Positions 8,840-60,775 of a DNA stretch of 64,000 bases are shown one piece after another (the stretch's first letter is position 1; each line of letters begins with the position of its first letter). Source of the stretch: Eledone cirrhosa (lineage: Eukaryota). The translations under genes and the position numbers were made by a program. Location of the stretch: NCBI GenBank assembly GCA_964016885.1, contig OZ024756.1:26226001-26290000 (forward strand), read 5' to 3'. The notes under the pieces are model-generated. The model did not search any database, was not told where the DNA came from, and saw nothing but the letters and a program-made list of their open reading frames with translations.

Positions 8840-9026
8840 ACGTGGGAAAGTAAAAAAATCGGAGAATAGACCGTTAAAACATGTTTATTTAAAATATCAC
8901 CTACGTACGTTTCGCCCAGTTGGGCTTTTCAAGGGCATAATTTATAACTGGGCGAAACGTACGTAGGTGATATTTTAAATAAACATGTTTTAACGGTCTA
9001 TTCTCCGATTTTTTACTTTCCCACGT
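8840..9026. repeat. fold-back inverted repeat (~80-bp arms)
   Basis: Near-perfect arms. Hammerhead variant TTGAAAA-GCCC AACT GGGC-GAAA-CGTACG-TA on the minus strand at the turn. Confidence 0.9.
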
Positions 9027-10514
9027 GCTTACGCTCTGCTAACTCTCTAGCCCACTAAATATTAACACTTCGAATATTTAATACTGCCGGCACTAGTATC
9101 GATCACCTTTGACATACGCTACTTGGCAAATAACTATATGTATCACCTATCCCCCCTTTTTTTCTCTTTCTCAATACGTAAATACTATATATATATATAT
9201 ATATATATATATATATATATATATATATATATATATATATATATATATATATATATATATATATATATATATATATATATATATATATATATATATTTAT
9301 GTAATGAACAACATAAGATAATAATGTTGTTTATTACATAACTAAAAAGCTCTGTAGCCTACATAGAGCACTGTCTTTTCCTTTACCTTTCCTACGGAAA
9401 TACTTCATATATATATATATATATATATATATATATATAGGAAAAGAATCAGGACCACGACGGCTGAGCTCCGGCCGTATCGACAGCTAGATCCGACCCC
9501 CCCCCCCACATACACACACACACACCCACCCACCCACACATACGCGCACACGCACACACACACACACACACACACACACACACACACACACATATATATA
9601 TATATATGTATGTACGTATGTATGTATATATGTATATATATAGTAATAATAATAAATTCGAAGAGTAAAATCCAAAGAGGGCTCGATAAGGATAAATATA
9701 TATCAAATATATAAGATAAGAACCGTAGAGATATTAGAAAGTAACTTTTTTTTAAAATGCGTATTACAAGTCGGCAAAGGCATACATCTCTCCATTCCTC
9801 ATAACATTTGAAATGCATGGAACCTGTGAGACCAGTAAAGTTACAAGTTATTTTAAATAAACCTTCTTAACGACCCCAATTTCATTATATATATATATAT
9901 ATATATATATATATATATAGGAGACTGAGGTTGGCTGGACATGCTCACCGACATCCAGAGTTGACATTGCACTCAGTGCTCCTTTGGGAGCCCCTACATG
10001 GACACACTAGAAGAGGAAGACCAAGGTTAACATATGTTGATGCCCTAAGGACAGACACTGGTCTGTTGGAGATGCAGGATATGGCAGCGATAATGAGGGA
10101 CAGAGACCGCTGGAGAGAACTCGTCCATGGATCTCGGGAATTTTACCCGCCTTATATATATATATATATATGTATGTATGTATATATATATATATATATA
10201 TATATATATATATATATATATATATATATATACATATATATATAATAAATAAACACATATATATATATATATACAAATACACAGATAAAGTGTGTTACAC
10301 AGTGAGAAGTGTGTAACACACTTCTGTCTGTGTATTTCTATTTGAGCTCAGATGAAAACTTCCTGTTCTTCTTCGAGCTAAAACTTTGCCTTTCATCCTT
10401 ACGGGGGTCGATAAAATAAAGTACCAGTAATACACTGGGTATTTGCTGGCCTTGTGCCTAAAGTAGAAACAATTATTATTACTGTGAACTGCGGAATACT
10501 TTAATTCCGATCTT

Positions 10515-11155
10515 TGTATATATATATATATATATATATATATATATATATATACACACACATATATATATATATATATATATGTGTATATATATATATA
10601 TATATATATATATATATATATATATATATATATATATACACACACATATATATATATATGTGTATATATATATATATATATATATATATACATATATATA
10701 TATATATATATTTTATATATATATTATAATTTTATATATATATATATATATATATATATATATATATAAAATTAATAATAATGTATATATATACGCACAT
10801 ATATATATATATATATGTATATATATATATATATATATATATATATATATATATATATATAAAATTAATAATAATATATATATATATATATACACACACA
10901 TATATATATATATATGTATATATATATATATATATATATATAAAATTAATAATAATATATATATATATATACACACACATATATATATATATATGTATAT
11001 ATATATATATATATATATATATATATATATATATATATATATATATACATATATATATATATATATATATATATATATATATATATATATATATATATAT
11101 ATATATATAAAATTAATAATAATATATATACACACATATATATATATATATATGT
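10515..11155. repeat. long compound (TA)n microsatellite, representative of dozens in the window
   Basis: Direct inspection. Confidence 0.97.
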
Positions 11156-58730: not shown

Positions 58731-58902
58731 GTGATTTCAAACGAGGCATGCACCCATGTTTCTGCTTCATCCCTTCATATTGGAAGAAACCCCAAAACAA
58801 GACAGGAATAGACAACCCAAACTTTGACGTCGAGCTGAACGCTGACATCAAGGAAAACATTGAACAAGTTCCGCCAGAATTAGAGAGCAAGATTGGAATC
58901 AG
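58731..58902 (+). CDS. ABCA transporter exon 7
   Basis: Acceptor ctgtcag. PCFCFIPSYW...IEQVPPELESKIGIR. Donor AG|gtaaac. Confidence 0.9.
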
Positions 58903-59239
58903 GTAAACACATACCCACATATTACACACTAGTTATCGATGCCAACAATAATGATAGCAACAGCATTGAACATTCCAATTTTGGTGTACAGGATGGGCAT
59001 ACTATATATATAGAATGGAAAACGAAAAATCAGTGATGCATCGGAACTCAATTTATTGTGTTACAATTGTTTCCCCGGCGAATAGCTTGAGGTGCGATCC
59101 GTACTCAACCTGCATACCCCCTATGGAAGCATCTTAGCTACCATTAGACATATATATATATATATATATATATATATATATATATATATATATATATATA
59201 TATATATATATATATATATATATATATATAAACAAATAA

Positions 59240-60775
59240 TAGAGAGGAAAAAGATTTTTTCAGTAGAAAATGTTGAAGAGATTCTTTCAGTATAATATCA
59301 AAACATTTATTTATAAAGTGGATATTTCCACATTTAATAATATCGGTCCTTCGTTCTCTGTTAGTCAGCCAACTAACAGAGAATGAAGGACAAACATGGA
59401 CAAAGATATGAACTCTCCTCTCTAAATATGTATGTAAAAACTAATAATTTTTCTTTCCCTTTTTATTATTCGTATAAATATGCAACATAACTACATTTTG
59501 CATATCTGCAGTTGAAAAAGCATATAATGCTAATGCTGAAACCGATATTATTAAATGTGGAAATATCCCCTTTATAAATAAATGTTTTGATATTATACTG
59601 AAAGAATCTCTTCAACATTTTCTACTGAAAAAATCCTTTTCCTTTCTACTATATGTTTTTATGCATATCAACTCATGTGTTACTTTTCTACATTCCATAT
59701 ATATATATATATAATATAATATTTGATGCTAAGATATTGACATACCATAGCATAACTTAACAATATCTTAACACCAAGTATTATATTTTATCTGAAGAAA
59801 GAATACTACAATTTAGTATCCTTGAAATATGTATAATGAAATAAATATGTTGTTATAAAGATATTTTCCATTTATTAATATTGTTAATATTATATATATA
59901 TATATCATCATCATCATCATCATTATCGTTTATATATATATATATAATTAATAATAATAAGGGCAAAGTGTTAAATCTTCATTACGTTTATTGAGGTGTG
60001 GTGCGCATTTCACAATTGATTAGCTCAAAGCTTGATCTATATTGATCTGGCCTGACTCTGGAACCAAAAGCTCGTCGGATTTCTGTTATGGTAATGATAG
60101 AATGATTCTCTTATACAGATTGAGCCTTGAGCTGATCAATTGTGAAACACATGTCACACCTCAATAAACGTAATGGAGATTTAACACTTCGTTCTGTTTA
60201 TTACATGGCCTTGTGCCTAAAGTAGAAACAATTATTATTAGTATTACACTCTGCTTAGTACAACACTAATATATCTACTGGAAACTACGCATTGAGTGCT
60301 CACTCTGGCAAACCTACAGTAACTGGACATTACAATCACTAAAGATATATATATATATAGATAGATATCCATATGTGGTTGATGGCTGAGATAAAGGAGT
60401 ACTCAATAGCAAAGTAGAGTTTTAATATTCATTTTTATTAAGGATAAAAAGTGAATTTTGTTACAGGGTCATCAGACAAGAACTGTTTCAATGGCACACA
60501 CAGTATGTGACACATGGTACCATGGACCCAGCACTATGTGTCAATAATTGTCACAAGTATAGTGTTTGAACCAGAGTTTTCAAGTCGCTGGCTGGACTAA
60601 AAAGTCACACTCGTTCAGCGCATCAGTAGGGGTTCTCCTACATGGATATAAAGTAGTGGCCGTACTCAAAAGCGAGTTGGCAGCCACCATATATATATAA
60701 AAGAGAAAACACAGGTAAGCATTAAGAGAAGGATTTATCCTTCTCTTAATGCTTACCTGTGTTTTCTCTTTTATA
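59240..60775. repeat. three inverted repeats in ABCA intron 7
   Basis: 59240-59347 pairs with 59541-59650. Second repeat 59965-60190. Third 60693-60775. Confidence 0.85.
59784..59843 (+). ncRNA. minimal type I hammerhead ribozyme motif (family A), ABCA intron 7, sense
   Basis: TATTTTAT-CTGAAGA-AAGAATACTA..TAGTATCCTT-GAAA-TATGTA-TA-ATGAAATA. Confidence 0.72.

Follow-up and report, generated by a model that had tools for sequence, protein, structure and literature searches.

Why should a single stretch of the Eledone cirrhosa genome carry ten long inverted repeats that turn back on themselves beside (TA)n runs, most of them at or near a hammerhead motif? The question was raised by an earlier note on 64,000 nucleotides of contig OZ024756.1 (positions 26,226,001 to 26,290,000; the whole of this stretch is called the window hereafter). 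The answer reached here is that the hairpins are head-to-head pairs of 5′-truncated ends of Penelope-like elements (PLEs), mostly inserted in (TA)n. The fold-backs of the window are real and are explained as PLE insertions of known layout, and the counts given below make their mechanism testable.

Inverted repeats were called by BLAST of the window against itself after masking of simple repeats, the unmasked run being swamped by (TA)n. All ten repeats of the earlier note were recovered in place, with E-values from 6e-16 (55925) to 2e-161 (21473); each is named here after its position. Their description as near-perfect suits the best cases, with arm identities of 86–100%, but not the set as a whole, since 59965 and 55925 are older or shorter. 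A TA run lies at or near at least one outer end of every one of the ten insertions, as had been reported, and it is short at some of them (left of 60693 and of 59965, right of 21473). Search of each site against its own genome also bore out that the ten fold-backs represent ten different repeat families. At least two further fold-backs of the same look are present in the window (table 1).

In the search of each site the 40 best candidates were scored and 30 loci (L numbers) were kept per search, from 452–2318 first-look candidates per family. In every family, the sequence that continues past the shorter arm is a tail of the element and not flanking DNA. Copies stop at one of two sites, that is, the tail-less site A or the tail end B, and are followed by (TA)n or (CA)n. 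The length of the tail ranges from approximately 32 to 159 nt across the families.

Copies of eight of the ten families are linked elsewhere in the genome to frames of a reverse transcriptase (RT) and a GIY-YIG endonuclease (EN), and their layout matches the published structure of PLEs, which supports the Penelope-like origin proposed earlier. The frame lies upstream in the sense orientation in families 30127, 8840, 60693, 55925, 21473, and 59240 and is joined as an inverted copy in 30127, 14065, and 39903. For instance, EN is found upstream of the family end in L033 (8840) and L278 (55925), and in L018 a single frame includes the RT (YRDD) and GIY-YIG at the C terminus. The first ATG is located downstream of B by 46 nt in L053 (8840), 44 nt in L273 (55925), and 48 nt in L212 (60693). 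These starts of the open reading frame (ORF) 44–48 nt after B, together with the EN frames upstream, place A and B at the end of the pseudo long terminal repeat (pseudo-LTR) and in the leader of the ORF. The same end sequence is found after EN (L033, L195, L278, and L015) and before the ORF start (L036, L045, L053, L212, and L273), that is, the pseudo-LTR is repeated. No coding frame linked to families 48023 and 59965 was seen, and no PLE RT/GIY-YIG frame was found inside the window.

Database searches did little to name the element proteins. The Pfam GIY-YIG domain (PF01541) exceeded the cut-off only for L291 (E-value 6.5e-6) and was weak for L308 and L033; L018 had no Pfam match, and none of the fragments matched an RT family of Pfam. 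The PDB sequence search gave no meaningful match and the protein atlas no result. Among 249 protein relatives, the best 120 are mostly of about 700 aa, and none of these 120 has an informative name.

The Hydra clade of PLEs with a C-terminal EN is described as having RW[K/R], DKT instead of DKG, a CxCX5C linker, CxxC and CxH after the core, hammerheads, and insertion in (TA)n (PMC8557442). RWK and DKT are found in L053 (8840), RWK in L212 (60693), and RWR with DKT in L273 (55925). The CxCX5C linker is present in L018/L015, L033, L076, L235, and L278 and altered in L195, whereas CxxC and CxH follow the GIY-YIG core in L033 and L195, with no CCHH. Families 30127, 8840, 14065, 39903, 55925, and 60693 fit the Hydra clade by these sequence motifs, not every motif being readable in each family. 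Families 21473 and 59240 are without this Hydra pattern. A CX4CxxC cluster, which may be the CX2-5CxxC finger found upstream of the GIY-YIG in the Neptune/Nematis type, is present in L291 (59240), and 21473 shows only a CxxC..C cluster, in fragments that are broken.

Over all loci, 242 head-to-head pairs and two tail-to-tail contacts were found. The tandem family 48023 (24 pairs) was left out of the pair counts because its arrays run past the reference. In the remaining nine families, 163 of 218 pairs join an A end to a B end, three are A/A, two are B/B, and seven have a partial tail; the same-end pairs are thus 5 of the 168 that could be fully classed. A 26-mer of family 30127 that is blind to the tail has 14,814 exact matches in the genome, and among the first 100 matches listed there are 19 head-to-head pairs within 200 bp and no tail-to-tail pair; in 50 of its loci, 30 of 34 pairs are A/B and four have an unclassed end, one of which was assigned to A/A in the overall count. 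Of 96 pairs in loci fetched without the family's own DNA as query, 69 are A/B, two are A/A, and one is B/B.

Either arm may be the longer one. Among the 163 A/B pairs, the B arm is longer by >5 nt in 55, the A arm by >5 nt in 38, and the two are within 5 nt in 70. The tail-less A arm exceeds its partner by >20 nt in 23 pairs and by >100 nt in eight, reaching approximately 930 nt in L197. In family 30127 (77 pairs) the longer arm is split 17 versus 15 between the arm types. The junctions of the 163 pairs show overlaps of 1–8 nt (75), longer overlaps (5), blunt joints (17), or filler (66), and they are diverse, with 69 distinct junctions among 71 pairs of one family. The arms of one pair differ by 2–6%. 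In each of the seven families tested, the two arms of a pair have non-majority bases in common ∼3–10 times as often as random pairs do, and five of these families exceed the shuffle maximum; this is an indication of one template or of later conversion.

The target site had been thought to lack duplications. Plain (TA)n is present on both flanks in 95 of 164 pairs, where a duplication would be invisible, and 14-bp duplications do become apparent at interrupted TA runs. Among 165 pairs, 11 have a duplication that includes an internal break; its length is exactly 14 nt in seven of these, from two families, against 0.05 expected from shuffles and at most one in 150 shuffles. A laxer test was uninformative (17 observed versus 13.8 in shuffles), and the stricter one was used instead.

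A small hairpin motif, RCTC..GAGY, is located 4–13 nt after A in six of the ten family references, with half of the motif in a seventh. It is also found 5–11 nt after B in four of five copies, covering all three ORF-linked families, compared with 1.1% at control positions. Families 21473, 59240, and 48023 do not have it.

Three observations, that is, the outward arms, the stops at two family-fixed sites A and B, and the location in TA runs, form the basis of a mechanism that we consider probable from the sequences: a single RNA would be reverse transcribed with both nicked strands of the (TA)n target as primers, and end-joining of the two resulting cDNAs would follow. In detail, the GIY-YIG endonuclease would nick the two target strands approximately 14 nt apart, leaving two 3′ ends. 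One of them would prime at B and the other at A, each beside the small RCTC..GAGY hairpin of the RNA. Where transcription begins in the upstream pseudo-LTR, each cDNA would run off the 5′ end of the RNA after 50–300 nt, so that the turn would come to lie in or close to the hammerhead with no cleavage involved. End-joining with short microhomology or filler would then link the 3′ ends of the two cDNAs, and longer read-through RNAs would yield the long inverted copies that have been published. Transcription of Penelope is known to start within the pseudo-LTR (PMC2377424). A PLE protein of the anole cuts and extends both strands and starts at both ends of the tail, ribozyme cleavage not being needed (PMC11167929). 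These in vitro results agree with such twin priming, which is also favored here by the A/B pairing, the occurrence of longer arms of either type, the kinds of junction, the variants shared between arms, the 14-bp duplications, the hairpin motif after A and B, and the sharp 5′ edge in two families.

A stricter form of the same idea is that the integration of Hydra-type and other PLEs is obligatorily two-ended. A protein dimer would hold one RNA by the two copies of the hairpin signal and prime at A and B from a (TA)n cut with a 14-nt stagger, with most products being run-off copies of the leader. From the same sequence features this seems possible, though we hold it only tentatively. If it is true, one mechanism accounts for the tail, for the inverted arm, and for where the turn lies, and the reaction has seeded about 10^5 DNA hairpins in the genome, whose centers map the transcription starts of the elements.

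Hammerhead core boxes were found by manual inspection in each of the ten family references; the U3-A8 variant is present in four, and several are noncanonical, with C3-A8 in 30127, U4A in 55925, and an odd stem III in 21473. The earlier note had seen a whole or half motif in the arms of eight fold-backs and none in 48023 and 60693. This holds for the arms themselves, but both of these families do carry the motif, and their turns lie 7–20 nt 3′ of the predicted cut site. Rfam returned no hammerhead among the best 150 of 319 matches, and minimum-energy folds recovered the motif only in part. Single hammerhead-like motifs were also observed outside the fold-backs, at window positions 3007–3034, 16144–16183, 1679, 6314, 59792, and 244 (minus strand), and the motif at 3007 combines canonical core boxes with a stem II of 5 bp.

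The 5′ ends of the copies were analyzed in the two best-sampled families, 30127 and 55925, the others being thinly sampled. Among 135 unbiased 5′ ends of family 30127, 115 are located 38–62 nt upstream of A, one at 63–100 nt, and nine farther, whereas the predicted cut site is at 16 nt. In family 55925 (n = 59), 45 ends are within 75 nt of A and two at 76–100 nt. The 5′ edges are placed 61 and 73 nt upstream of A, respectively. In both families the edge coincides with an A whose sequence context is initiator-like, namely TCATTT in 30127 (19 of 25 long copies) and TTAGTT in 55925. The edge is one-sided; in one family it is placed within stem II, and in the other it is upstream of the entire hammerhead motif.

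A turn set at the ribozyme cut site was therefore rejected for the well-sampled families, as the ends pile up away from the cut. The proximity of turn and hammerhead noticed earlier is real, yet it exists because the motif sits just upstream of the element ends and not because of cleavage. A splice acceptor as the cause of the edge in 30127 and 55925 was also rejected by eye, since ends pass upstream of the AG and the junction fillers vary. From the positions of the ends we infer that the turn would be a run-off from the 5′ end of the RNA.

A different origin of the second arm is self-priming: a B-primed cDNA, or an antisense RNA, would be copied on itself, the endonuclease would resolve the product at A, and later deletions would reshape the center. 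The head-to-head order, the A/B rule, and the variants shared within one molecule are all explained in this way, as are the 70 pairs with arms of near-equal length, some of which, like 30127, form a perfect palindrome. An antisense template that primes itself has been proposed (PMC3846280), and resolution by the endonuclease has been published for the tail (PMC8557442). The difficulty lies in the arm lengths. If the first cDNA simply folds back, the tail-bearing arm must be the longer one or equal at birth, and the pairs with a longer A arm leave simple fold-back unsupported; the 23 pairs beyond 20 nt and the eight beyond 100 nt require large one-sided deletions to be added. Filler at 66 junctions suits end-joining better than snap-back, and the same RNA hairpin follows both A and B, the two tail ends also being RT start sites in vitro (PMC11167929). 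Thus, of the fold-back or self-priming route that the earlier note suggested for all of the hairpins, a shared integration route is supported and the simple fold-back, as stated, is not. Self-priming with later deletions is unlikely, although it deserves to be kept in mind.

It is more doubtful still that the two cDNAs were primed on two separate RNAs, or that the turns arose where the RT stalled in the ribozyme fold. The mismatch between the arms of a pair is only somewhat below that of random pairs in several families, the median 5′ extent tracks the hammerhead position weakly across eight families (rho 0.67, p 0.07), and nine of the 135 ends of family 30127 read far past the edge, all of which would suit these versions. 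Two free RNAs, on the other hand, would permit A/A and B/B pairs, which are scarce, and the shared variants exceed random pairing. A stall does not fit an edge that is one-sided on an initiator-like A and is differently placed relative to the motif in the two families.

Long inverted arms, TA targets, and the high copy number of the 26-mer would also be expected of miniature inverted-repeat transposable elements (MITEs) or of foldback DNA transposons that end in long inverted repeats, but such an origin is very improbable. Centers and arm lengths differ in nearly every copy, one arm extends into a fixed tail, and single and tandem copies also exist. Above all, such transposons are refuted by the links of eight families to RT/GIY-YIG frames and not to transposases. 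Fixed terminal inverted repeats on a constant unit were rejected on the same grounds, that is, variable centers, distinct junctions, asymmetric ends, and RT links.

Chimeras of the assembly or library, which the earlier note had left as an alternative, scarcely deserve consideration: fold-back chimeras are a known sequencing artifact, but diverged arms, family-fixed ends, 14-bp duplications, and reads from other samples largely refute them here. At the 59240 junction, a contig of run X1 reads across without any difference, covering 35 nt on one side and 55 nt on the other. The 59965 junction is crossed by contigs of X1 and X3 that extend slightly less than 31 nt on one side, although both runs may come from the assembly's own sample. 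In the raw reads of two samples of another study, end A of family 30127 is confirmed by 2459 and 1986 reads that pass from it into (TA)n, and 62 and 30 reads contain opposite-strand joints of the same family, with two start places each.

Several points weigh against twin priming on one RNA and against the run-off that would end it. Most of the family loci are top-identity matches and not a random sample, and 43 of the 218 pairs have an unclassed end. Arm lengths are uncorrelated in seven of the eight families tested. No duplication is seen in 52 of the 61 pairs with an interrupted left flank, which later mutation of the TA run may explain. Deletion on one side of a palindrome center, as is known from work on palindrome instability, could follow a fold-back and make either arm the longer one. 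The proposed transcription start was deduced post hoc from the motif and the edge in two families, and no downstream promoter element is evident by eye at the edges. Finally, the start site in the anole study did not differ between the strands (PMC11167929), which alone would allow A/A and B/B pairs.

The frequency of the hairpins beyond the window was examined in 600 kb of evenly spaced tiles, 40 from C1–C5 (400 kb) and 20 from the smaller chromosomes (200 kb), with a single rule that required arms of ≥30 nt and a gap of ≤350 nt and excluded pairs formed by a common short interspersed element (SINE). By this rule the window has 12 fold-backs in 64 kb, the C1–C5 tiles 25, and the smaller-chromosome tiles 22 (47 in total). 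The suggested rate of one per 6–7 kb is not sustained, the values being one per 5 kb in the window, one per 16 kb in C1–C5, and one per 9 kb in the smaller chromosomes. The association with (TA)n extends to the tiles: (TA)4 is present at an outer end in 32 of the 47 fold-backs, versus 4% of random intervals. Of the 25 fold-backs of C1–C5, 14 have the half-motif GAAAY..GTH directed outward and one has it directed inward; in the smaller chromosomes the bias is weaker (19 and 9 of 22, respectively). Only three of the 25 fold-backs of C1–C5 belong to the ten families. Extrapolation from the tiles suggests that the genome (3.0-Gb assembly) carries on the order of 10^5 such hairpins.

PLE ends of the same or different families are stacked in each other's TA runs at L347, L378, L405, L228, L077, and L086, so that insertions chain along a growing (TA)n site. 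A cluster of a very common SINE-like repeat with tandem and inverted copies is located at 26390–27303 of the window; its inverted-repeat matches are not fold-backs and were excluded from the counts.

Table 1. Fold-backs of the window, with the arms given by the site (A or B) at which each stops
Feature	Position in window	Arm stopping at A	Arm stopping at B	Hammerhead and turn	Flanks, linked frames, and relatives
Head-to-head PLE insertion, family 8840 (Hydra-type)	8840..9185	left, 8840-8947 (minus strand)	right, 8946-9185, 159-nt tail	whole U3-A8 hammerhead in left arm, half in right arm	(TA)n both sides
Head-to-head PLE insertion, family 14065	14066..14423	left, to 14224, beside (TA)n	right, 14225-14423, 62-nt tail, beside (CA)n	cores in both arms, right-arm core mutated	inverted RT-EN frame upstream in L076
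Additional fold-back	17613..17934			cores in right arm	by eye same layout; (TA)n both sides; tile L103 has a related hairpin
Head-to-head PLE insertion, family 21473 (not Hydra-type)	21437..22004	right, 21772-22004	left, 21437-21755, tail-bearing	both core boxes present, stem III not canonical; 16 nt between arms	RT/EN frame upstream in L145, L149, L154
Head-to-head PLE insertion, family 30127 (Hydra-type)	30126..30327	left	right, continuing via 81-nt tail	half in each arm; perfect 120-bp palindrome, center 30186/30187	(TA)n both sides; RT-EN frames in L015, L018, L002
Additional fold-back	30359..30528				left arm long, beginning at (TA)n; right arm short, passing into (TC)n/(TA)n; related copies 3600-3698 and 15612-15726; related hairpins in tiles L405, L410
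Head-to-head PLE insertion, family 39903	39806..40024	right, 39940-40024	left, 39806-39945, 76-nt tail	turn within stem II, half motif per arm	inverted RT-EN frame in L235
Head-to-head fragment pair of 316-bp tandem hammerhead unit, family 48023 (retrozyme-like)	48028..48313	left	right, ~32-nt tail	turn 7-15 nt 3′ of predicted cut site	
Head-to-head PLE insertion, family 55925 (Hydra-type)	55825..56015	right, short, A end abutting another repeat	left, 55825-55956, 88-nt tail, beside (TA)n		second family copy at 56438-56621
Head-to-head PLE insertion, family 59240 (not Hydra-type; older)	59231..59698	left, 59231-59347	right, ~59364-59698, tail ~30-40 nt	hammerhead-like motif restricted to right arm	GIY-YIG upstream in L291
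Old head-to-head insertion, family 59965	59952..60332 (right end approximate)	left, to 60114	right, broken near A by 40-nt piece of other repeat (60206-60245), then tail towards (TA)n		
Head-to-head PLE insertion, family 60693 (Hydra-type)	60700..60909	left, 60700-60739	right, 60736-60909, 136-nt tail	turn 8-15 nt 3′ of the family's hammerhead cut site	EN upstream in L195, L202

No A-to-G hyper-editing was seen in the ten copies of the window. A search of sequencing runs for family 30127 listed no RNA run that contains it, a result that carries no information on expression. Inverted 50-bp arms of another repeat family surround a TA run at 13710–13950 and 28679–28783, with one arm extending to a second TA run; a hairpin of this family occurs in tile L116, and it is possibly a further PLE-type fold-back. 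Weak, old inverted repeats (70–74%) are located at 16905–17032 and 43940–44042.

The window also includes repeats of other kinds. Long open frames at 50241–52313 (+), 44846–46671 (−), 54543–55514 (−), and 33389–34180 (−) resemble by eye RT fragments of the type of long interspersed elements; the longest such frame has 691 aa, and none of these frames matched the PLE query. Arrays of the same 48-bp minisatellite, of 26 and eight copies, are found at 36871–38115 and 43099–43472, respectively. Five pieces of one repeat of at least 636 bp, which are 93–98% identical, are placed at 3939–4385, 13074–13709, 40402–40640, 48571–49176, and 60511–60688, and several of them abut TA runs.

The origin of the inverted arms and one-sided tails of PLEs is put as an open question in PMC8557442 and PMC11167929. 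The many independent insertions of this genome separate the models, as they provide two start sites per family, a shared hairpin, a 14-nt stagger, and a predicted transcription start. Such hairpins are also easily misannotated as MITEs or microRNA precursors, and several gave weak Rfam microRNA matches. Some 10^5 hairpins of this kind could give rise to double-stranded RNA and make the genome locally unstable.

The layout, the tail on one end, the hammerheads, the motif pairs on opposite strands, and the preference for (TA)n are already in print. A literature search, made without most subscription papers (including the PLE reviews of 2005–2006) or supplements, found no A/B count, 14-bp duplication, or proposal of twin priming for the inverted arms of PLEs. 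Inverted, 5′-truncated pseudo-LTRs, with a tail that is often or optionally one-sided, are described for endonuclease-positive PLEs, as are target duplications, of 8–10 bp in the rotifer, and an initiator-like motif in the pseudo-LTR (PMC3846280 and PMC8557442). The insertions studied here share the head-to-head order, the overlap or palindrome at the junction, the tail on one arm, the target duplications, and the initiator-like motif. They differ in that the pairing has been counted (163 A/B versus five same-end pairs), the duplications are of 14 bp, and either arm may be longer.

Compared with the Hydra clade, the six families that fit it share motifs, hammerheads, and the (TA)n target. Their tails are 62–159 nt long, whereas 30–40 nt are described for PLEs (PMC8557442), and most copies here are short head-to-head pairs with no ORF. 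The assignment to the clade is by sequence motifs.

The element PAc (Poseidon of Anolis) has two internal RT start sites that bound the tail, AT-rich cut sites, and the use of uncleaved RNA (PMC11167929). Two start sites around the tail, AT-rich sites, cutting and extension of both strands, and uncleaved RNA are points of likeness to the mechanism proposed here. By contrast, PAc belongs to another clade and its start sites are inside the start of the ORF, whereas the proposed ones here lie just before it; no model of how the inverted arm arises is offered in the main text of that study.

Minimal hammerheads of PLEs and retrozymes have a U3-A8 core variant and a short palindromic stem III (PMC4209133 and PMC7229834), from which the cores of families 30127, 55925, and 21473 deviate. 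Pairs of hammerheads on opposite strands 100–700 bp apart and tandem units of ∼300 bp have also been described (PMC4209133, PMC7229834, and bioRxiv 10.64898/2026.07.22.740005). Family 48023 is, by its sequence, like the non-LTR retrozymes in its near-identical tandem units with a spacing of 316 bp and one type I hammerhead motif each. Its arrays (L162–L190) are very young and often form two back-to-back runs with rearranged junctions, and one on C1 exceeds 7 kb.

A parallel for the mechanism is twin priming of L1, in which both target nicks prime on one RNA and an inverted 5′ piece results. The second priming site of L1 varies, and its two cDNAs have hardly any overlap, whereas here both sites are fixed and both cDNAs would copy the same stretch, giving a true inverted repeat.

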